Source: Patescibacteria group bacterium
Lineage (GTDB): Bacteria > Patescibacteriota > Saccharimonadia > Saccharimonadales > JANWIN01
NCBI GenBank assembly: GCA_035480855.1
Contig: DATIHJ010000019.1
Span: 80,096 to 144,095, forward strand
Direction: 5' to 3'
Length of the DNA: 64,000 nt
A model generated the notes under the pieces. The model was not told the DNA's origin. It did not search any database and was given only the letters and a program-made list of their open reading frames with translations. Below are positions 31,133 through 45,815 of this stretch, one piece after another (position 1 is the first letter of the stretch; each line of letters starts with the position of its first letter). Position numbers and translations under genes: made by a program.

Positions 31133-31465
31133 ATGACTACATCAATCGAACATGATGGATTAGGACGGCAAGTATTTGATAAAGTGGTGAATCATGCGGC
31201 AGCACCCTCTGACGTTGTAGCTGATCTGAGTTTTCTTGAGATGTCAGATGCAACTGATTTATTGTATGAAGACGGAGATTACTCACCCGCGCAGCGCATA
31301 AGGTTGAGAGGGCTAGGAATCCAGATTTTTACAGAGGCGCTGGAAAGACACGCACTTGGTTTGATACCAATAGCAGAGTGTGAGCAGGCTCATACTGATT
31401 ATCTAGATGTAATGCTTGACGCTGGAAAATGGCTTGCGCGACATCAGCCTGGACAACAGGGGTGA
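31133..31465 (+). CDS. Orphan acidic 110-aa ORF between nusG and rplK
   Basis: Open frame 10 nt after the nusG stop. No SD and no recognisable family. Confidence 0.35.
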   Translation: MTTSIEHDGLGRQVFDKVVNHAAAPSDVVADLSFLEMSDATDLLYEDGDYSPAQRIRLRGLGIQIFTEALERHALGLIPIAECEQAHTDYLDVMLDAGKWLARHQPGQQG

Positions 31466-32238: not shown

Positions 32239-33261
32239 ATGGCGGAAGCCAAGAAAGCTGCCAAGGCAGCAGAAAAGAAACCATTAGTAAAGAAGAAAGT
32301 TGTTGCTGAAAAGACTCCAACTGCGAAGAAAGCTGTTGCCAAGAAAGAACCGGCAAGCAAAAAGACAGCTCCTGCTGAAAAGCCAGCCGATAAAGAGGTT
32401 ATAAAGCCTGTAGAGAAAACAGAGGAACCTGTAGTTGCTAAAGCAGGTAAGCGAAGTGCTAAAGCTCTCCAAGAGACTGAAGAAAAACTAGCCAAAGAAG
32501 AGCACAAGGCCGAGATATCTGAAGAAAAGGAATCTAAAGCTCCCAGAAAGCCAGAAAAACCTGCCCGTTCCAAGCTTGAACGACGCAGTAAGAAATACCG
32601 TGATGCTACTAAACTTATAGAAAAGGATAAAGAGTATTCCGCCAAGGATGCTTTGGAGCTTGCTATAAAAACAAGTACCGTTAAGTTTGATGCAACGGTG
32701 GAACTTCATGTAAACCTAGATGTTGACCCCAAACAGGCAGACCAAAATATTCGTGGTACTGTAACATTGCCATCTGGTAGTGGCAAAACAGTACGCGTAG
32801 CTGTGTTTGTTGAGGCAGATAAAGTAGCAGAAGCTAAAAAAGCTGGTGCAGACATTGCCGGGATAGAAGAAATTGTTAAACTCCTAGATAAAGAGTCCAT
32901 GGACTTTGATGTGCTCATCTCTCCGCCAACTCTAATGTCCCAGCTCGGGAAATACGCCCGTTTGCTAGGTCCTAGAGGCCTTATGCCTAACCCAAAGAGT
33001 GGAACTGTAACAACAGACATTAAAAAGGCGATTACAGAAGCCAAAGCTGGTCGAGTAGAATACCGCGTAGACAGTACGGGTATTGTGCACCTGGGCATTG
33101 GTAAGGTCAGTTTTGGTGCCGATAAACTTGTTCCTAACGCAGAGGCAGTGCTGGGCGCTATCCGTAGTGCAAAGCCTGCATCACTCAAGGGCAATTACGT
33201 TAAATCTGTTTACGTGACCAGCACAATGGGCCCCAGCGTCCGACTATCAACTACGATATAA
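32239..33261 (+). CDS. rplA: 50S ribosomal protein L1 with a K/A/E/P-rich N-terminal extension of about 110 aa
   Basis: ATG 32239 follows SD GAAGGAGAA (the ORF track GTG at 32212 has none). The L1 core begins near RSKKYRDATKLIEKDKEYS. Confidence 0.92.
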   Translation: MAEAKKAAKAAEKKPLVKKKVVAEKTPTAKKAVAKKEPASKKTAPAEKPADKEVIKPVEKTEEPVVAKAGKRSAKALQETEEKLAKEEHKAEISEEKESKAPRKPEKPARSKLERRSKKYRDATKLIEKDKEYSAKDALELAIKTSTVKFDATVELHVNLDVDPKQADQNIRGTVTLPSGSGKTVRVAVFVEADKVAEAKKAGADIAGIEEIVKLLDKESMDFDVLISPPTLMSQLGKYARLLGPRGLMPNPKSGTVTTDIKKAITEAKAGRVEYRVDSTGIVHLGIGKVSFGADKLVPNAEAVLGAIRSAKPASLKGNYVKSVYVTSTMGPSVRLSTTI

Positions 33262-33262
33262 T
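33257..33262 (+). promoter_or_regulatory. -10 box TATAAT spanning the rplA stop, 7 nt upstream of the tmk ATG (leaderless geometry)
   Basis: No SD before ATG 33270. Confidence 0.35.
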
Positions 33263-33269
33263 ACTTACA

Positions 33270-33896
33270 ATGAACGGCTACATAATTGCCATAGACGGGC
33301 CAGATGGCGTGGGCAAGTCAACCCAGGCTGAACTTCTTCGGAAATACCTAGTAGGTAAGGGGCACAAAGTCCATTTTACCCGAGCATCTGGTGGTACACC
33401 TATTGGCGAGGAACTACGCCGTGCCTCGCTATCACACCACCCCCGCCCAGTCGAAACAGATCTACATATATCCCTAGCAATGCAGACGGCACTCGGTTTT
33501 GACCTGCAAAAGCGAAAAAAGGCAGGCGAGGTTATAGTTGTAGATAGAAGTCCACTGGCAATTGTGGCCTATCAAGTATACGGTAATCAACTAAAGCCCG
33601 AATCTGATGGGTTCGATGCCTGTGAGAAAATGCTGCGGATATGGGGCATAGATACACTATTTGTACTTGAAGCTCCCCAGCCAGTGCTAGATGATCGGCG
33701 CAAAAAGCGACTTAAGGACAGTGATTATTTTGAAGACCAGCCGGCAGACTATCACCACCGTGTACAGGAAGGTTATAGAGACGCCCAAGCTGCTGTACGC
33801 AAGATTGATCTACCTATGAAGACAATTACAATTGACGCCAGGCCATCTGCCGAAATAATTCACCAAAATATACTAAAGCATATCCCTAAGAACTAA
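33270..33896 (+). CDS. tmk: Thymidylate kinase (stand-alone copy)
   Basis: IAIDGPDGVGKSTQ P-loop and DRSPLAIVAYQVYG motif. Confidence 0.85.
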   Translation: MNGYIIAIDGPDGVGKSTQAELLRKYLVGKGHKVHFTRASGGTPIGEELRRASLSHHPRPVETDLHISLAMQTALGFDLQKRKKAGEVIVVDRSPLAIVAYQVYGNQLKPESDGFDACEKMLRIWGIDTLFVLEAPQPVLDDRRKKRLKDSDYFEDQPADYHHRVQEGYRDAQAAVRKIDLPMKTITIDARPSAEIIHQNILKHIPKN

Positions 33897-35595
33897 TTTT
33901 TAAGCCATGATGAACACGCATGGCCTTATTTAGGGCATTTACCACTCGGCTAAAGGTTCGTATGCCGCCTTTGTATGCTATGTAGCGATTCTGCCAACGT
34001 GGCTCGTATTTTGCCTTGAACCGATACAGTCCACTGAATGAGTAAAATCGGTCGCCGTTTGCGTATACGAACTGTAAAGCGCTATCGATAATGGTCTTAT
34101 CTTCGTCGGCCTGGTATTTGAGGCCAGTAAGCGGGCAAAGTCCCAGATTAAGACTGTCAAACCCGTTTGCGTGCAGATATTTGGCAAATTCTATCAGTAA
34201 AAAGTCATTGGTATTACTTATTGCCACACTACTTTGCCGCAGCAAGTCGTAGTTAGCTTCTTTTACGTCAAAACTGGGTATTTGGTTTATAAATCCCTGT
34301 ACAATTCCATCTTTATCAATTGCGGCCAAAATATGGCTCATTTGCATATATTCCGCTGTGAAATGTCCCATCATTAACCCTCGCTCTGCTCGTCCTGGAA
34401 GTTTGAGCCATTCATTAGAAATGTTACGCAGGCGATTTATGAGTTCTGGAGAATGAGGCGGTAAAAGCATCTTAGCCTCATAACCCTCGCGTCCAAACCG
34501 GTTACTAATTTGACGGAAATATTTATTACGGCTAGTGGACTGAGTGAATTCGCCCAATTCAAGAATTGCTTCCTGACCAATTTTTTGTAGGCTATAACCA
34601 TTAGTTTTGTAGAAACTAGACCATTTTGGCTCAGTGTGTATAAATGCCGGAGTCCAATCGTTTGTGCGGCAAAGCTCATGGAATTTTGTAAGCAGTTGGG
34701 CGGTAGCAACTTTCTGCCCGACAGGATCGCCTACAACTAAAGCCACTCCGCGCTCTACGCGGAATGCCAGCCCAGCCTGGTTACCAGCCGCTAAATAATA
34801 GCCTTTATCATGCGGCCAAAGTTTAAAGAAATCTTCACTGGAGCCGCCATACCGCTCCAATAGCTCCTTTAGTATTAAACGGTTGCGGTTCTGGTCACTC
34901 AACCGCGCTTTAATCGGTTGAAATAACGAAATCGCTACATATGCCAAGGCCGTAGCGCTGACTAACGACAGTGAGTTTAAAAACAGATGTCCTCGAGCAG
35001 TAAAGGCGATTAGCGCCTTATTAGTAGTTAAGCCAAACTGGTCCACCGTATAGTGTGCGGCTTGGACTAGGCTTATTTCTTGTCTAAAATCATGCTTATC
35101 AAGCAGCTGGAATCCAATTACCCCATACAAAAAGGCTATGATGAGTACTAGACAAATAAACCGCAGGGACAGGGCAAAGTTGCGAATATCACTCCTGACT
35201 GTAAACTCATGACGGTAGTACGCTAGGCTACATAGTACGACCAGAGGTAAAACGATAGATCGCAAGAAGTGTGTAGCGCCAAAATCATCAAACGACATAG
35301 ATGACAGATAGGGTGCTGTATTTAGACCCAGCAAAAATGCATACAGGCCAATGGTAATCGCCCAGGCAATCTGTTTCCGACGTACTAGCAAGGTAGATAG
35401 ATAAATAAAACTCATACCAATAATTATTGACACACTTATTCGGGCGTCGCTGGTTGCGGTATGTCTAAAAATAGTAATGTGGCTGGCGAGCACACTGGCA
35501 ATAATCAACAGGCCGTTAGCAAATACGCCAAAGGCCACTAGCCTGAGGACAAACAGTTTGCGTACTAAATGCCGCTTTTGCTGGGTATCAGCCAT
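33886..35595 (-). CDS. mprF: Aminoacyl-phosphatidylglycerol synthase (MprF-type C-terminal DUF2156 domain with an N-terminal polytopic membrane domain)
   Basis: 6-7 N-terminal TM helices. C-terminal FVYANGDRFYSFSGLYRFKAKYEPRWQNRYIAY is typical of lysyl-PG synthase domains. Confidence 0.75.
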   Translation of the reverse strand: MADTQQKRHLVRKLFVLRLVAFGVFANGLLIIASVLASHITIFRHTATSDARISVSIIIGMSFIYLSTLLVRRKQIAWAITIGLYAFLLGLNTAPYLSSMSFDDFGATHFLRSIVLPLVVLCSLAYYRHEFTVRSDIRNFALSLRFICLVLIIAFLYGVIGFQLLDKHDFRQEISLVQAAHYTVDQFGLTTNKALIAFTARGHLFLNSLSLVSATALAYVAISLFQPIKARLSDQNRNRLILKELLERYGGSSEDFFKLWPHDKGYYLAAGNQAGLAFRVERGVALVVGDPVGQKVATAQLLTKFHELCRTNDWTPAFIHTEPKWSSFYKTNGYSLQKIGQEAILELGEFTQSTSRNKYFRQISNRFGREGYEAKMLLPPHSPELINRLRNISNEWLKLPGRAERGLMMGHFTAEYMQMSHILAAIDKDGIVQGFINQIPSFDVKEANYDLLRQSSVAISNTNDFLLIEFAKYLHANGFDSLNLGLCPLTGLKYQADEDKTIIDSALQFVYANGDRFYSFSGLYRFKAKYEPRWQNRYIAYKGGIRTFSRVVNALNKAMRVHHGLKISS

Positions 35596-35603
35596 GTATA
35601 GAT

Positions 35604-35609
35604 ATTGTA
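35604..35609 (-). promoter_or_regulatory. -10 box TACAAT 8 nt upstream of the mprF-like ATG (leaderless geometry)
   Basis: The minus strand reads TACAAT-atctatac-ATG. No SD. Confidence 0.35.
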
Positions 35610-35708
35610 TACTGTCAGCTGCATAAGCTTATTACTAAAAAGAAGTTGTAATATTTCCAGTCCTACTTGCCAGCCTGTCAAATCATTTCGTACAATGGTT
35701 ATAGTTAA

Positions 35709-36437
35709 GTGAAAGAGGGTACTGTGGGGGTATATAGCAACATACAAATACGTCAGGCAATGGAGGATGGTCATATTATTTGCACTCCTTTTGACCCTAA
35801 GCGCGTATCGCATGCCAGCCTTGATGTTACTCTGGGTTACTACTTCTACCGCATAGAGCGGATGAACGAGCGTAACATTTATAACCCGTTTGACCGTGAG
35901 GACGTGGAGCGCTATTTTGATGGCCCTTACAAGGCACAGCCTCACGCCGAGTGGTGTGACCAGAACGGTGTAAAGCCGCTGCTAGGCATTTCAGATAGTC
36001 ACCCAGTTATTGCACTTAAACCTGGAGAGCGTATTTTGGCACATACCCATGAGTTTTTTGGCATTAAGCCACCTGGTGCGTTTGATCTAAGAGCCCGCTC
36101 TAGTTGGGCACGCAACGGAGTCGCAGTGTGTTTTGATGCTGGCTGGGTTGATCCGGGCTACATTAATCGGCTTACCCTTGAAATCTATAACCTGAATCAC
36201 CGTGAAACAGTTGTATTGCCAGTGGGTGAGCGTATTGCCCAGGCAGTGTTTCACGAAACGGGTGAAGTTGAGGGTAATTACGGTTCAGGCCGGGACGAAG
36301 GTTTTAGCGGCAAGTACCAACGAGGCACAGACATAGATACAATCATCAAAACCTGGGCACCGGATATGATGCTACCTCAAGCATACAAAGACAAACGCAC
36401 ATTGCCACCTAAAATTGAAGGTATGGCGTATGAGTGA
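35709..36437 (+). CDS. dcd: dCTP deaminase family protein (long, 242 aa)
   Basis: RARSSWARNGVAV...GWVDPGYINRLTLEIYN core of the dCTP deaminase/dUTPase superfamily. GTG start after AGAGGG. Confidence 0.8.
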   Translation: MKEGTVGVYSNIQIRQAMEDGHIICTPFDPKRVSHASLDVTLGYYFYRIERMNERNIYNPFDREDVERYFDGPYKAQPHAEWCDQNGVKPLLGISDSHPVIALKPGERILAHTHEFFGIKPPGAFDLRARSSWARNGVAVCFDAGWVDPGYINRLTLEIYNLNHRETVVLPVGERIAQAVFHETGEVEGNYGSGRDEGFSGKYQRGTDIDTIIKTWAPDMMLPQAYKDKRTLPPKIEGMAYE

Positions 36438-38769
36438 GCCGCTTGGTAAATATATAGTCATCGAGGGTCCAGAGGGTGCGGGCAAGACAACCCAAATAAC
36501 ACTTCTGGCAGCCGGACTGCAAGCAGCCGGTTTGCCAGTACGTGTCCTTCGTGAGCCAGATAGCCAGAGCGATTTAACCGCCCGTAGCATACGTCAGCTG
36601 ACCCAAGACCCACGCTACCCCATGAATAGCCGCACAGAAGTGCTACTTTACAACGCTGCTCGTTCACAATCACTGGATATTATTCGTGCGTCTATTGCCC
36701 AAGGCATTATGTGCCTAGTAGATCGTAATTACCTGACCACATTGGCTATTCAGTATTACGGACGTGGAGATGTACCGGATTACGAAACTATAAACCAAAT
36801 TATAAGCTTTGCAGTCAACGGTATGGAGCCAGACCTTACGATTGTACTGGATGCACCCGTGCAAATGCTTCGCGAGCGCACCCAGACGCGGCGTACCAAG
36901 GAACGCTTTGACAATCTGGACGAAGCCTTTTTGGAACGAGTTAGGGCAGGGTACCTCTGGGAAGCCAAACAGCGAGGCTTACCGGTTGTATTTGCGACAG
37001 AGCCACCAGAAGAAGTCTTTAAGCAAGTATGGGAATTAGTCGCTCAAACACTAGCTATACGGGGCCCCAAAGCTCAGCAGGCCAGCGAGCCTGCATCGAT
37101 TAGAGACATCTTAGCGGAGCGCCAAACCACCATGCCACATTCTAAACAGATGGAAACTCAAGGAGAGGATGAAGCTTTAGTTATTAAAGACGACCAGGGT
37201 GTTTATAGCGTGACAGACGCTGGCCGCCGCGAGCTGGAACAAGCAGTCACGAATGTAGACGATGATGTTTATTCATTTACTGAGCGCCTGAGCCCAATGA
37301 CCATTGCAGCAGCCATGGCTCGACTCAGCCGTCGGGGCGATGATATGCGTATTACACTTTTGGATGAATTTATGGGCAAGGCCGGTAAGGACGAACAGCT
37401 TCTGCACCGCATTATTACCGCTTTTGGCGACGATTCTGTACAGCAGTTGGCAGGGCAGCACATAGTGGTAGAAAACGCTTCAAACTTGCTAACCAAAAAG
37501 TTGGAGTGGGGCAGGCTGGCCGCCTATTTGGAGCAGTCCACGCGTTACATCTACTTTGACCAAAAGGATAAAGACGGTAATTACAAATACTACGTGCCCA
37601 AACAGTTCAACAAAAAGACTGCTAGCTTGTACCGCAAAGCTATGGATGCAATATTTGACAGCTACTCAGATATGGTTCGAGAACTAACAACCTACATCCA
37701 GCAGCACTCAAACGTCCCCAAGAAGGAGCAAGACGGAGCCTGGCGGGCCGCCACCAGGGCCCAGGCCTGTGATGCAGTCCGCCCAGTGTTGCCGGTAGCG
37801 ACTAAGTCTACCGTAGGCATTTATGCCTCTGGACAGGCTCTAGAAAGCCTTATTATGCACTTACTAAGTGATGAGCTACCTGAAGCCCGTGAAACAGGCC
37901 AGAAAATGCTCGATGAAGCTCGCAAAACTATGGGCACATTCCTAGAGCGCGCCGACAAGCCTGACCGTGGCGGTGCAATGGTTGCCTACCGAGCCAATAC
38001 TGCAGCAGGAGTAAAAGATCTTGCGCATAAATATTTGCCAGATAATTATGGCCAACAAGATGCGCCGGTCACCCTCACAGCCGTTTGGCCCCGTAACGAG
38101 CTAGACCTAATACCAGATATGCTCTACGACCATAGCAATTTATCACTAGAAGAGTTAAAACAGCAGGTTAGCGCTTGGCCCTACAGCAGAAAAGAAAAAG
38201 TCTTTAAGGCATATGTTGGTGAGAGGCTTAACCGCCGCCATAAGCCAGGACGAGCATTAGAAAACGCCCACTATAGCTGGGATCTACTATGCGATTACGG
38301 CATTTTCCGCGACTTGCAGCGCCACCGCATAGTGGATGACCTAGAATGGCAGCTACTTACACCGCGCTATGGCTACGATGTACCGTCACTAATAGAAGAG
38401 GCTGGACTAACAGAGCAGTTCCAGGCTTGTTTTGATACAAGTCTTGAACTCTATAGCGCCCTGCAGGCTTCAGGGTACGAACTTGAGGCCCAATATGCTA
38501 CCTTGCTAGGCCACAAAATGCGTTGGAAGATTACCTATAACGCTCGTGAAGCCTTCCACTTGCACGAACTACGTACTACACCCCAGGGACACCCTGGCTA
38601 CCGCAAGCTGGTATTACAGATGCATGAAAAGCTAGCTGAGATCCACCCGATGTTGGCGGAAGCTATGAAATTTGTGAATCAAGACGAAGATCCGGCGTTA
38701 ACCCGTCTAGCAGCTGAGCGCTACACACAGTTCAAGCTAGAGCAGTTGGACAAAGCCAAATCTAAGTAG
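36430..38769 (+). CDS. thyX: Fusion protein: thymidylate kinase (N-terminal, about 210 aa) + tandem ThyX-like (FAD-dependent thymidylate synthase, Thy1) domains
   Basis: ATG 36430 overlaps the dcd stop (ATGAGTGA). Tmk motifs: IEGPEGAGKTTQ and DRNYLTTLAIQYYGRG. ThyX-like halves: EWGRLAAYLEQSTRY and FRDLQRHRIVDD...TPRY / NAREAFHLHELRTTPQGHPGYR. Confidence 0.75.
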   Translation: MSEPLGKYIVIEGPEGAGKTTQITLLAAGLQAAGLPVRVLREPDSQSDLTARSIRQLTQDPRYPMNSRTEVLLYNAARSQSLDIIRASIAQGIMCLVDRNYLTTLAIQYYGRGDVPDYETINQIISFAVNGMEPDLTIVLDAPVQMLRERTQTRRTKERFDNLDEAFLERVRAGYLWEAKQRGLPVVFATEPPEEVFKQVWELVAQTLAIRGPKAQQASEPASIRDILAERQTTMPHSKQMETQGEDEALVIKDDQGVYSVTDAGRRELEQAVTNVDDDVYSFTERLSPMTIAAAMARLSRRGDDMRITLLDEFMGKAGKDEQLLHRIITAFGDDSVQQLAGQHIVVENASNLLTKKLEWGRLAAYLEQSTRYIYFDQKDKDGNYKYYVPKQFNKKTASLYRKAMDAIFDSYSDMVRELTTYIQQHSNVPKKEQDGAWRAATRAQACDAVRPVLPVATKSTVGIYASGQALESLIMHLLSDELPEARETGQKMLDEARKTMGTFLERADKPDRGGAMVAYRANTAAGVKDLAHKYLPDNYGQQDAPVTLTAVWPRNELDLIPDMLYDHSNLSLEELKQQVSAWPYSRKEKVFKAYVGERLNRRHKPGRALENAHYSWDLLCDYGIFRDLQRHRIVDDLEWQLLTPRYGYDVPSLIEEAGLTEQFQACFDTSLELYSALQASGYELEAQYATLLGHKMRWKITYNAREAFHLHELRTTPQGHPGYRKLVLQMHEKLAEIHPMLAEAMKFVNQDEDPALTRLAAERYTQFKLEQLDKAKSK

Positions 38770-39193
38770 CCTGAGAATGTCCACCCAAAAGATATACCTT
38801 TGCATCAACCGGGGTGTGATCTTCGAGGCCAACACTACTATCATTTACCCGAAGATCAACTCTCCTGCCAAACATTTTTCCCGACCAAAGAATATTAATT
38901 CCATTTACATCTGCCGAAAGATCTGTTTGACCCCGAGAGCCAATTGATTCAACTAAGTGTTTATTCAGGAGTTGCGTATCTTCGTCAGATAACTTGACTC
39001 CCCATGCAATACAAGACCCATACTCTGTAGATTTGTCATCACGCATTTCAATTAACAATGCTTCTAGTCTGCGTTGTGCTAGGCCTATGTCTTCTGGAGT
39101 CAACGGACCTCTAAAAGCCAACGCTACAGAAATTTGAGCATCAAGCGGTAATAATCTATTTGGACCAAACTCAGGCCCTTCTGAATCTAACAT
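38762..39193 (-). CDS. Hypothetical 143-aa protein (orphan)
   Basis: SD GGAGA 6 nt upstream of the ATG. Tail-to-tail 8-nt overlap with thyX. No family recognised. Confidence 0.5.
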   Translation of the reverse strand: MLDSEGPEFGPNRLLPLDAQISVALAFRGPLTPEDIGLAQRRLEALLIEMRDDKSTEYGSCIAWGVKLSDEDTQLLNKHLVESIGSRGQTDLSADVNGINILWSGKMFGRRVDLRVNDSSVGLEDHTPVDAKVYLLGGHSQAT

Positions 39194-39223: not shown

Positions 39224-39251
39224 AGATCCTTAGGATTAAGGATCTCTTTTT
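39224..39251. terminator. Perfect 9-bp palindromic hairpin with U tracts on both strands (bidirectional-terminator-like)
   Basis: AGATCCTTA-GGAT-TAAGGATCT (39224-45). The plus strand continues CTTTTTG. The minus strand continues GAAATTTTTG. Confidence 0.45.
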
Positions 39252-39344: not shown

Positions 39345-39419
39345 ATGATTGGTTTGAACCGTTTGCAGCACCCCCTACTCGCTCTTACTGGGCTGTGCTT
39401 CATTACGGTTGAAGCCTGA
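39345..39419 (+). CDS. Candidate leaderless mini-ORF / leader peptide, 24 aa (MIGLNRLQHPLLALTGLCFITVEA)
   Basis: Hand translation. The last codons and the stop (39406-19) coincide with the 5' arm of the 13-bp helix. Confidence 0.4.
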   Translation: MIGLNRLQHPLLALTGLCFITVEA

Positions 39420-39485
39420 TCCGCACTACGCGGAATCGCACAGCTCAACCCAACAGGCTTCAACCGGAAGCTTGTCTTTAATTTT
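39406..39485 (+). promoter_or_regulatory. Alternative-helix switch: a 13-bp antiterminator helix versus an 8-bp terminator-like hairpin with a U-rich tail
   Basis: CGGTTGAAGCCTG (39406-18) pairs with CAGGCTTCAACCG (39454-66). Alternatively CAGGCTTC (39454-61) pairs with GAAGCTTG (39467-74), followed by TCTTTAATTTT. Confidence 0.45.
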
Positions 39486-39498
39486 AGGAGATTTAATT

Positions 39499-39717
39499 AT
39501 GAGTAAATTGCGCGGTGAATGGAGAGATATTATCTTAGATCCTTCAGATGCAGCTTATGGCCGCTGGAGGACTCACGACGGCCTTCCTCCAAACAGAAGT
39601 GAGATTGAGGGCGGACCACCTATTTTTAAGCGTTTGCCGCCTACAGAATTAGGGGCGACTTCAATACAGGCAGCTAGCATAGATGAAATAGAACAACCGC
39701 CCTATCAGCTTCCTTAG
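39499..39717 (+). CDS. Hypothetical Pro-rich 72-aa protein (orphan)
   Basis: ATG 39499 follows SD AGGAG (39486-90). The ORF track TTG 39409 lacks an SD and lies inside the leader helices. Confidence 0.5.
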   Translation: MSKLRGEWRDIILDPSDAAYGRWRTHDGLPPNRSEIEGGPPIFKRLPPTELGATSIQAASIDEIEQPPYQLP

Positions 39718-41176: not shown

Positions 41177-41686
41177 ATGGCAGACGTACCAGATAAACAG
41201 GTAAAAAGACTAAGAAGCCTTATTCAGGAGGCTGAGACGAGTTTGGCAGCCGCCAAAGAGCTGCTACTGAGTTTAGTGGGCGAAAACCCAGAAGAAACAG
41301 CCACAACTGTGGACGATTCGCTCGGCAAAGTTATAGAGGGTGTGTTTGACGGCCAAAACATGGTAGGCAGCGACGGCAAAACTTACCCAGTGCCTGCTAA
41401 CTATGCTTCTAAGTCAAAACTTGTACAGGGAGACATTCTCAAGCTAACAATAGGTGACGATGGTGCATTTACTTACAAACAGATTGGCCCCATTCCACGT
41501 AAACAAGTTGTTGGCAGCCTAGAGCTCAAAGAAGGCCACTACTTTGTAAAGGTTGCTGATAAAGAATACCGCGTACTACTAGCTAGTGTGACATATTTCA
41601 AGGCCAAGCCAGGCGACCAAGTTAGTGTGAACATACCAGAAGACGATGCGAACGCCGAGTGGGCAGCTCTCGAAGCCGCTTTATAA
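41177..41686 (+). CDS. Hypothetical 169-aa protein (N-terminal coiled coil, C-terminal beta-rich domain)
   Basis: SD-like GGAG/AAGGGA upstream. No family recognised. Confidence 0.5.
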   Translation: MADVPDKQVKRLRSLIQEAETSLAAAKELLLSLVGENPEETATTVDDSLGKVIEGVFDGQNMVGSDGKTYPVPANYASKSKLVQGDILKLTIGDDGAFTYKQIGPIPRKQVVGSLELKEGHYFVKVADKEYRVLLASVTYFKAKPGDQVSVNIPEDDANAEWAALEAAL

Positions 41687-44624: not shown

Positions 44625-45815
44625 ATGAGTCTTAGCAAACGCCTCCATGTCTTATTTATCCGCGTGTCATCGCCGCTTGTTTGGGGCCTAGCTGCACTAG
44701 CGGGAATCGGTTTTATACTTTTTTATCGACTGGGTAGCTTAGTACCAGGCTGGAGCCAGGCAGAACTTAGCTTTTTAAATCAGAGCCGCACATTCAAGGG
44801 CATTTTGAACAACCCCCTAAATGCACCTTACAAACTTGCGCAACTAGCGCTAATTCTACTCCACCATGAAGGGCCAATAGCAATGCGCAGCCTTAGTGCC
44901 CTTATTGGACTCACAAGTATTGCACTGTTTTATTATGTTATCCGTAAATGGCACACTACACGTGTCGCCTTGATGAGCGTAGTGCTACTGGCCACGTCCA
45001 GCTGGTTTTTGGGGTATGCTCGGGTAGCTCTGCCGGCTATACTCTATACTTTTCTAATTGCCGCTCTTGCATATGGCACCTGGCTACGCTCAACTAAAAA
45101 GTCTGCTTTGGCACTGTTTGTAGGTGCTGCACTAGCAGTGTTTTTAATCTATATTCCTGGCCTAGTGTGGTTTGTCTTAGTAGCCGGTGTCTGGCAGCGC
45201 AAAGCCATATTTGCTCACTACAAAGACAGGTCTGTACTGGGATTTTTGGCTATTATTATGGGTTGTGTGCTACTACTTCCACTTATCTATGGGTTGGTCA
45301 TGCATCCTCAACTTACACGTTCGTTTGCTGGACTTCCGTTACTGCATTGGCCAAGCGTACTCACTGTTTGCAAAAACATCTTGTATGTACCTTACCATCT
45401 GGCTGTACATAGTGGCCTTAACCCCGTTTTTGGCCTGAGCAACTTACCACTGCTAGATATCTTTACGCTAGCGATGGCCGTGCTAGGCATATATGCCTAC
45501 TTTTTTCGTCGTCAGCTTGATCGTACCAAGCTACTTCTGGGTTCAATCATTCTCGGAGTAGCCCTAATAAGTTTGGGTGGAGGGGTAGAAATAGTTATAT
45601 TGCTACCTTTTATATATCTATTTGCAGCTGGTGGTATTACCCTAATGCTACAACAGTGGTTTACAGTTTTCCCACTCAACCCACTAGCCAGGATAGTGGC
45701 CACAACCCTTATGACCGTGATTGTACTAATGGCCAGCTTTTATCACATCAACCGCTATTTCGTAGCTTGGCCAAATGCCCCGATCACCAAGCAAACCTTC
45801 CATATTCACTCCTAG
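44625..45815 (+). CDS. Polytopic membrane protein (at least 9 TM helices), possibly a GT-C (ArnT/PMT-like) glycosyltransferase
   Basis: Hydrophobicity pattern and loose resemblance to family-39 glycosyltransferases. The function is uncertain. Confidence 0.4.
   Translation: MSLSKRLHVLFIRVSSPLVWGLAALAGIGFILFYRLGSLVPGWSQAELSFLNQSRTFKGILNNPLNAPYKLAQLALILLHHEGPIAMRSLSALIGLTSIALFYYVIRKWHTTRVALMSVVLLATSSWFLGYARVALPAILYTFLIAALAYGTWLRSTKKSALALFVGAALAVFLIYIPGLVWFVLVAGVWQRKAIFAHYKDRSVLGFLAIIMGCVLLLPLIYGLVMHPQLTRSFAGLPLLHWPSVLTVCKNILYVPYHLAVHSGLNPVFGLSNLPLLDIFTLAMAVLGIYAYFFRRQLDRTKLLLGSIILGVALISLGGGVEIVILLPFIYLFAAGGITLMLQQWFTVFPLNPLARIVATTLMTVIVLMASFYHINRYFVAWPNAPITKQTFHIHS

Follow-up and report, generated by a model that had tools for sequence, protein, structure and literature searches.

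Can a protein that carries a thymidylate kinase (Tmk) followed by two halves resembling the thymidylate synthase ThyX, with the ThyX signature divided between them, both make and phosphorylate thymidylate? This question is raised by a fusion gene, tmk::thyX2, found in the window of 64,000 nucleotides (nt) analysed here (contig DATIHJ010000019.1, positions 80,096 to 144,095), which belongs to the core chromosome of a Saccharimonadales bacterium (Saccharibacteria/TM7, Patescibacteria). The gene runs from an ATG at 36430 to 38769 on the plus strand and encodes 779 amino acids (aa); its start overlaps the stop of dcd, a gene of the deoxycytidine triphosphate (dCTP) deaminase family (35724 to 36437, plus strand, 237 aa). 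We think it likely that these two translationally coupled genes, dcd and Tmk::ThyX-ThyX, constitute a housekeeping thymidylate module of the Saccharimonadales chromosome, leading from dCTP to deoxythymidine diphosphate (dTDP). The parts are all known enzymes, and both the two-domain ThyX and the fusion have database entries already, with names assigned automatically.

Both open reading frames (ORFs) lie where the original prediction had placed them, with the dcd-like frame ending at 36437 and the 779-aa frame beginning at 36430, and its call of one Tmk and two ThyX domains was borne out by Pfam domains above cutoffs and by confident fold models. The translation contains EGPEGAGKTT, DRNY, YYGRG, RRTKERFD, EWGRLAAYLEQSTRY and QRHRIVDDLEWQLLTPRY. 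In the kinase domain (aa 1-210, 36430 to 37059, of the type called A below) the P-loop EGPEGAGKTT at 36463 to 36492 is followed by DRNY and the lid RTQTRRTKERFD. It matches Pfam Thymidylate_kin (PF02223) over aa 11-199 with 98.9 bits, and the fusion passes TIGR00041, the NCBIfam equivalog for deoxythymidine monophosphate (dTMP) kinase, with 110.8 vs a cutoff of 83.25. This domain matches P. aeruginosa Tmk (E 2.5e-25), with P-loop, DR motif and lid arginines all in register, and in Foldseek its model reached target-normalised TM-scores of 0.84-0.90 to solved Tmks. PF02511 (Thy1; cutoff 24.8) matches twice, at aa 289-500 with 64.9 bits in half 1 (aa 245-517, 37162 to 37980) and at about aa 594-740 with 57.2 bits in half 2 (aa 518-779 and the stop codon, 37981 to 38769). 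AlphaFold2 gave a mean per-residue confidence (pLDDT) of 92 both for the full chain (predicted TM-score, pTM, 0.72) and for the tandem ThyX part (pTM 0.88). The latter was modelled alone, since full-length matches in the Protein Data Bank (PDB) were dominated by kinases; it matched the ThyX of T. maritima, M. tuberculosis and PBCV-1 with a probability of 1.00 and TM-scores of 0.66-0.73, and PolB (4p5b) was matched as well. Each PDB match spans one half only (query-normalised TM-score ≤0.34), hence no two-domain ThyX has been solved. A family profile recovers solved ThyX from each half, namely M. tuberculosis ThyX from half 1 (E 1.5e-12) and the H. pylori, PBCV-1 and T. maritima proteins from half 2. 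Pairwise similarity between the halves is undetectable (BLASTP E 0.62), which suggests that the internal duplication is old. The linker (aa 211-244, 37060 to 37161) is of low confidence, with pLDDT <50 at aa 211-222 and 231-244 and >90 on both flanks. Between these two segments lies one short predicted helix (aa 224-231; 37099 to 37122) with S-I-R-D-I-L-A; several type-A fused relatives share S-[VI]-x-[ED]-[IV]-L-A, and the helix may be a docking element.

The distribution of the ThyX active-site residues over the two halves carries most of our argument. Residues are given in T. maritima ThyX numbering and were tabulated over a diverse set of 32 two-domain ThyX proteins and a set of 199 fusions. 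In half 1, R80, E86, S88, R90, Y91 and R147 are invariant, whereas R78 (mostly W), H79 (mostly G), N163 (S, N or T) and R165 (Q) are substituted or variable, and R174 is an arginine in 15 of the 32. The window protein follows this pattern: its half 1 lacks RHR and equivalents of N163, R165 and R174 and reads W-G-R...S-T-R-Y in the signature region, with LEWGRLAAYLEQSTRY at 37501 to 37548 and R451, its R147 equivalent, kept. In half 2 the invariant or nearly invariant residues are R74, R78, H79 (31 of 32), R80, N163, R165, R174 and H178; R147 is mostly replaced by Q (Gln in the window), the S88 position holds T or S, and R90/Y91 are not kept family-wide. In the window, FRDLQRHR...TPRY (38305 to 38370), in which R-H-R is followed by a 3-residue insertion and then T-P-R-Y, and NAREAFHLHELRTTPQGH (38539 to 38592) are kept. 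The claim that half 2 has lost both serines was thus too strong: there is a Thr at the Ser88 position and R-Y follows, and within the Saccharimonadales clade T-P-R-Y is kept in 198 of 199 proteins. Taken together, the halves hold a complete set of residues for binding flavin adenine dinucleotide (FAD) and deoxyuridine monophosphate (dUMP) and for catalysis, and this complementary set is strictly invariant across proteins that are 33-55% identical to the ThyX part of the window. For PBCV-1 ThyX a uracil pocket has been described to which monomer A contributes Gln75 and the strictly conserved Arg182, and monomer B Ser88/Gln89 (PMC3498832). R174, which we equate with PBCV-1 Arg182, activates dUMP, and methylene transfer requires S88, R90 and Y91 (PMC8316439). 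Because the split matches these published contributions, half 2 would be specialised as monomer A (and for FAD) and half 1 as monomer B, and the original proposal of complementary half-motifs has held up. The residue split further points to a dimer of chains in the shape of a pseudo-tetramer, with two complete and two degenerate sites; such a dimer would probably have two complete active sites.

What does the neighbouring gene contribute? For dcd the start GTG 35724 is likelier than the alternative GTG 35709, because AAAGAGGG precedes it and gene callers chose it. The product matches PF22769 with 112.1 bits, passes TIGR02274 marginally (93.7 vs cutoff 92.8), has 4xjc (E 7.9e-14) and M. tuberculosis 2qxx as closest solved relatives, and shows the catalytic motif RSSxxRxG...TLE as RSSWARNG and LTLE. 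It had been claimed that Dcd, ThyX and Tmk catalyse consecutive steps. This holds only if Dcd also hydrolyses dUTP, and the sequence determinant for that is present. According to PMC3360063, which cites Johansson 2005 and Helt 2008, monofunctional Dcd has an Arg at E. coli position 126 that bars dUTP hydrolysis, and bifunctional, dUMP-forming Dcd has Phe or Trp at that position together with Ser102, Asp119 and Gln148 (M. tuberculosis numbering). In the window AGWVDPGY aligns with AGFIDPGF of M. tuberculosis, placing a Trp at the Arg126 position, and the Ser, Asp and Gln (RIAQ) are present. Among 36 fusion-adjacent Dcd ORFs of relatives this position is Trp in 33, Phe in one and Arg in none. 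Hence Dcd is probably of the bifunctional, dUMP-forming type. If the rule holds, it would yield dUMP directly, and two overlapping genes would encode dCTP to dUMP, dUMP to dTMP and dTMP to dTDP.

The fusion is not peculiar to one assembly. A 100% identical protein is recorded at NCBI from a metagenome-assembled genome (MAG) of a 'Patescibacteria group bacterium' (GCA_964561555.1). A first homology search found 3857 proteins at E ≤0.001, many of them probably through the kinase domain alone; the best 120 of these 3857 are all Tmk+Thy1, 764-795 aa long and 70-100% identical to the window protein. A profile search gave 7994 matches at E ≤1e-10 among 8000 candidates, and among the matches listed 198 have the same architecture at >700 aa, with 67-91% identity over the aligned part. 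We then turned to about 40 loci from Saccharibacteria species, counting the window's record (L002). Thirty-six of them contain the fusion, and in 34 of these 36 a dcd ORF lies just upstream on the same strand. Among the 29 loci where the start could be placed, about 22 show an overlap of 8, 4 or 1 nt between the stop of dcd and the start of the fusion. The 8-nt overlap that had been predicted for the window, ATGAGTGA (36430 to 36437, plus strand), is read directly in the sequence and is conserved: it recurs in 11 loci with a type-A kinase (L002 included), and a 4-nt ATGA/GTGA overlap is found in about nine type-B loci. The gene order rplA-[tmk, mprF, dcd, fusion]-rplJ is repeated in a relative that is 72% identical.

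The fused kinases are of two non-orthologous types, with about 20 bits between types and >190 bits within a type. Type A, the window's, is closest to Pseudomonas/E. coli Tmk and occurs in 17 loci, where the 8-nt overlap with dcd prevails. Type B has an FPxYG motif and M. tuberculosis TMPK as its nearest match (E 1.5e-15); in its 19 loci the 4-nt overlap prevails. The ThyX cores of both groups are 59-77% identical to that of the window, mostly 65-74%. Deeper-branching loci are unfused and carry a type-B tmk beside a tandem thyX (L034 with the order dcd-tmkB-thyX2, L035 and L039). In a neighbour-joining tree without support values the unfused loci come first, a type-B grade next and type A mostly later; such trees are too crude to count changes of kinase type. 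The unfused dcd-tmk-thyX2 of the deeper-branching loci suggests a history in which an operon became a fusion and the kinase module was later replaced, which is the simplest reading, noticed rather than established.

From these observations the following course might be proposed. Dcd, if it is of the bifunctional type, would convert dCTP straight to dUMP. An ancient internal duplication of ThyX would have shared out the active-site residues, so that half 2 gives the 'monomer A' set (R74, R78-H79-R80, N163, R165, the dUMP-activating R174 and H178) and half 1 the 'monomer B' set (E86, S88, R90, Y91 and R147, which binds phosphate). A pair of chains would imitate the canonical ThyX tetramer but have just two complete FAD/dUMP sites, one for each attached kinase domain, and the same polypeptide would methylate dUMP to dTMP and then phosphorylate it to dTDP. 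A kinetic benefit might come from channelling or from stoichiometric co-expression. A bolder form of this idea, which we hold to be rather doubtful, is that Dcd and Tmk::ThyX-ThyX make up a physically organised 'thymidylate metabolon' from dCTP to dTDP. It would have an obligately asymmetric ThyX, put together from degenerate halves that complement each other and with only two of four pseudo-sites active, and a kinase, tethered 1:1, that receives dTMP directly. Tethering would have been under such selection that the kinase was swapped between a Pseudomonas-like and a Mycobacterium-like Tmk as Saccharimonadales evolved, and the tandem ThyX together with the Mycobacterium-like kinase might stem from Actinomycetota.

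Several observations weigh against a working two-gene module. The complete ThyX signature RHRxxxxxxxS(xRY) is found in neither half alone, only across both. The equivalog TIGR02170 for ThyX is not passed (the full protein reaches 53.5 and the tandem part 55.8, vs a cutoff of 87.9), and single-sequence PDB searches with each ThyX half matched no solved ThyX. All 32 diverse two-domain proteins do match TIGR02170, and no other NCBIfam model matches the family. The residue equivalences come from profile and hand alignment and not from a superposed ligand complex, and given the T-x-R-Y of half 2 in Saccharimonadales the other two pseudo-sites may have kept some activity. On the kinase side, some fused relatives (P0132, P0127, P0141, P0161) have a degenerate Walker A, for example EGLSNY-RDQ in P0132, and DGPDDLYVVRQ is seen as well. 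Many type-B domains have GKG in place of GK[ST] and some have NR in place of DR, so that the fused kinase may be inactive in some lineages. A second tmk at the same locus leaves the need for a fused kinase unclear. Finally, our literature search returned no biochemical or genetic data for any family member.

This second tmk deserves a closer look, as it opens another explanation. The gene (33270 to 33896, plus strand, 208 aa) starts 8 nt past the rplA stop and is of a 'Tmk2 type' that is found near the fusion in about 11 of the roughly 40 Saccharibacteria loci (the window's record L002 included), alongside both fused kinase types. It had been called an ordinary tmk with a leaderless promoter of its own. 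The family part of this claim stands: the product scores 64.7 bits with PF02223 (cutoff 27), among solved structures T. maritima Tmk 3hjn comes closest (E 1.8e-15), and at the Pfam level and by its PDB relatives it is a bona fide member of the Tmk family, with a putative substrate. It falls short of the TIGR00041 cutoff, with 68.6. For the promoter we found a lone TATAAT at 33257 to 33262, which shares bases with the rplA stop and lies 7 nt ahead of the ATG without a -35 hexamer, and a two-hexamer scan gave no site there, so this part was dropped. The stand-alone Tmk could act on salvage-derived dTMP, as a backup or on another substrate. Alternatively it might do the phosphorylating, and the fused domain would then not be the dTMP kinase of the cell but a regulatory or structural nucleotide-binding module, for example one through which dTMP or dTTP feeds back on ThyX. 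A second Tmk-like gene only 2.5 kb upstream would suit such a division of labour, as would the broken P-loops of P0132, P0127 and P0161 and the GKG of many type-B domains. However, it is the fused domain that passes the dTMP kinase equivalog and the stand-alone copy that fails it. Among the fused relatives >700 aa, moreover, the P-loop is intact in 169 of 198 and D-R-[NS]-Y is present in 165 of 198 (VDRNY in 159), and most loci have no stand-alone tmk within about 6 kb, though one might lie elsewhere in the genome. We regard a regulatory or structural role of the fused domain, in place of dTMP kinase, as unlikely.

Other explanations concern the ThyX part. It might have diverged towards a non-canonical pyrimidine, as in PolB, which methylates UMP/dUMP, with the two kinases serving different nucleotides. 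This was raised in the original prediction, and one can point to the score under the ThyX equivalog cutoff, to the two kinase genes and to PolB (4p5b) among the fold matches, since the ThyX fold does host other specificities. Yet the residues for dUMP binding, activation and methyl transfer are all invariant in the family, the gene is coupled to a Dcd predicted to supply dUMP, and relatives occur in at least 594 stretches over several phyla, in core chromosomal positions, with unfused homologues annotated as thymidylate synthase in cultured bacteria. The genes surrounding the fusion are housekeeping ones, with no DNA-modification genes nearby. We consider such a divergence highly improbable. 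It is very unlikely, too, that the ThyX halves are relics that have lost catalysis and form no more than a large C-terminal extension of a dTMP kinase, in a cell that takes its thymidylate from salvage. The NCBI name 'dTMP kinase' and the lack of a complete motif in either half would agree with this, and Saccharibacteria have been described as lacking de novo nucleotide synthesis; but dead domains would lose a complementary catalytic set such as the one that is strictly invariant here, and the tandem core also occurs without any kinase in free-living bacteria, where it is annotated as thymidylate synthase. A sequencing or assembly frameshift that joined separate tmk and thyX genes, named beforehand as a possible refutation, has a negligible probability. 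We found no direct support for it, although an unfused dcd-tmk-thyX2 is known in the deeper-branching L034 and L035, and it is refuted by the continuous fused ORF in about 200 independent assemblies (NCBI, JGI, ENA, Logan), which include contigs of 0.5-1.1 Mb, the same locus lying on one of 1.1 Mb. On the grounds of sequence, fold and comparative genomics, a dCTP-to-dTDP module remains the reading that we prefer.

The two-domain ThyX itself is not confined to Saccharibacteria. When the ThyX part alone was compared with 1.84 billion cluster representatives we obtained 3444 matches at E ≤0.001, 712 of them below 1e-30; most of the best 150 of the 3444 are unfused and 510-560 aa long, and an N-terminal kinase is present in about 35. 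The scan of species-representative genomes that located the at least 594 stretches used the 32-sequence alignment of the family, and it ranked Saccharibacteria best, with Acidimicrobiia and other Actinomycetota, Acidobacteriota and Binatia next. Under the name 'FAD-dependent thymidylate synthase' RefSeq holds unfused two-domain homologues (about 520-565 aa) from cultured bacteria, among them Euzebya pacifica, Miltoncostaea oceani, Parabacteroides distasonis and Bacillus and Paenibacillus replicons. In Euzebya pacifica the protein (WP_164711104.1, 516 aa) is encoded on plasmid NZ_CP031166.1 (175377-178200; L083) with a dcd about 700 bp upstream. The nearest tandem ThyX proteins outside Saccharibacteria (loci L044-L082) belong to Acidimicrobiia and other Actinomycetota and are 40-42% identical. 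Actinomycetota are also the phylum of the hosts of cultured Saccharibacteria, and the type-B kinase is Mycobacterium-like as well, so that horizontal transfer between the two, in either direction, is possible. We also noted two-domain ThyX in a 309-kb jumbo phage, Tunturiibacter phage Tunturi_5 (PP885688.1, 46534-47979), and on large Bacillus (B. licheniformis pSCDB14, L084) and Paenibacillus plasmids, perhaps phage-plasmids; these phage and plasmid proteins are 21-25% identical to the tandem part of the window.

Whether the fusion was already catalogued had been left undecided in the original prediction, and it is: JGI uses 'thymidylate kinase/thymidylate synthase ThyX' among its names, and NCBI nearly always gives 'dTMP kinase' only, with one 'FAD-dependent thymidylate synthase'. 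As a consequence of the NCBI label, metabolic reconstructions may wrongly score Saccharibacteria as lacking a thymidylate synthase. Our literature search found no paper on the two-domain ThyX with its split site, on the fusion to Tmk or on the coupling to Dcd.

The wider context of the two genes is that of a bacterial core chromosome. The window includes secE-nusG-rplK-rplA ... rplJ-rplL, dnaX, dnaB, recR and cysS, and between rplA and rplJ lies a five-gene block (33270 to 39193) of the tmk-like gene, an mprF-like gene, dcd, tmk::thyX2 and a 143-aa ORF. This block breaks up the rplK-rplA/rplJ-rplL ribosomal-protein cluster, which is contiguous as a rule, and its mprF-like gene and stand-alone tmk are found in some relatives only. 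Base composition is flat across the region except for a slightly higher GC content (0.50) over the fusion gene. A phage or plasmid origin of the locus was considered and rejected, the neighbours being ribosomal-protein and replication genes and the composition flat apart from the fusion-gene GC. The MprF-like aminoacyl-phosphatidylglycerol synthase gene (33886 to 35595, minus strand, 569 aa), mentioned for context, separates the two tmk genes as predicted (PF09924, LPG_synthase_C, 217.9 bits), and its 3' end overlaps that of the stand-alone tmk by 11 nt. As the match to NF033480 is limited to model positions 319-832 of 841 (294.9 bits vs a cutoff of 600), the protein would correspond to the synthase part without most of the N-terminal flippase region. 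Upstream of dcd a promoter-like TTGCCA-18-TACAAT (35667 to 35696, plus strand) agrees with the consensus at 10 of 12 positions; it is a lead only, because such sites in this region are not above shuffle expectation.

Downstream, the 143-aa ORF (38762 to 39193, minus strand) has no family match and is convergent with the fusion gene, overlapping its stop by 8 nt; the relative L001 has an ORF of unknown family (172 aa) at the same place. On both strands at 39224 to 39245 we noted a perfect palindrome with a 9-bp stem, AGATCCTTAGGATTAAGGATCT, and T-runs on either side; it has the look of a terminator acting in both directions, placed between the 143-aa ORF and the plus-strand ORF that comes next. 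Besides the 143-aa ORF, no Pfam match was obtained for the plus-strand ORFs 31133-31465, 39409-39717, 41177-41686 and 44625-45815; one such ORF of 110 aa sits between nusG and rplK and one of 396 aa comes after dnaB. Ribosomal protein L1 (32212 to 33261, plus strand, 340-349 aa) has an N-terminal extension of about 120-130 residues, a low-complexity stretch with much Lys, Ala and Glu, and an extended L1 (336 aa) is also present in relative L001.

Why might this arrangement matter? ThyX is an antibacterial target with an active site that draws residues from several identical subunits. The two-domain form, with split residues on non-identical halves, provides a natural asymmetric ThyX in which the contributions of subunits, and the sufficiency of half the sites, might be tested. 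The kinase fusion and the coupled Dcd suggest a compact and balanced supply of thymidylate in very small genomes without de novo nucleotide synthesis, which is relevant to the culturing and targeting of Saccharibacteria.

In comparison with known systems, each half of the window protein shares fold and Pfam family with canonical ThyX (T. maritima TM0449, M. tuberculosis Rv2754c, PBCV-1 A674R). Canonical ThyX has one Thy1 domain and forms a homotetramer with four sites, each built from three subunits, whereas for the window protein, whose chain has two dissimilar Thy1 domains, we predict a dimer and two complete sites. Closest in kind are the unfused two-domain ThyX proteins, which have an orthologous tandem core with the same invariant split residues over about 90% coverage and an identity to the window of 22-38% (annotated plasmid records) or 40-42% (Acidimicrobiia MAGs), but carry no kinase domain and show no start/stop overlap with dcd. 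The biochemically assayed ThyX of Chlamydia (about 530 aa) may be of this two-domain type. With the bacterial dTMP kinases of P. aeruginosa, E. coli and T. maritima the fused domain shares the equivalog score, the P-loop, the DR motif, the lid arginines and the fold; it differs in being tethered to ThyX by a linker of about 35 residues and in having DRNY instead of DR[YFH]. In sister lineages an M. tuberculosis-like Tmk subfamily takes its position. The Dcd has the aromatic residue at the Arg126 position and the S102/D119/Q148 equivalents in common with the bifunctional dCTP deaminase:dUTPases M. tuberculosis Rv0321 and M. jannaschii MJ0430, but it is about 45 residues longer in its N-terminal half, and its activity is a predicted one. 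PDB 4xjc, its relative named above, may likewise be bifunctional. Finally, the DHFR-TS of protozoa and plants, the classic case in discussions of channelling, also joins two enzymes of the thymidylate/folate cycle in one chain. The likeness is one of analogy and not of homology, as DHFR-TS is made of unrelated folds (ThyA, DHFR) and couples thymidylate synthesis to a different partner step.

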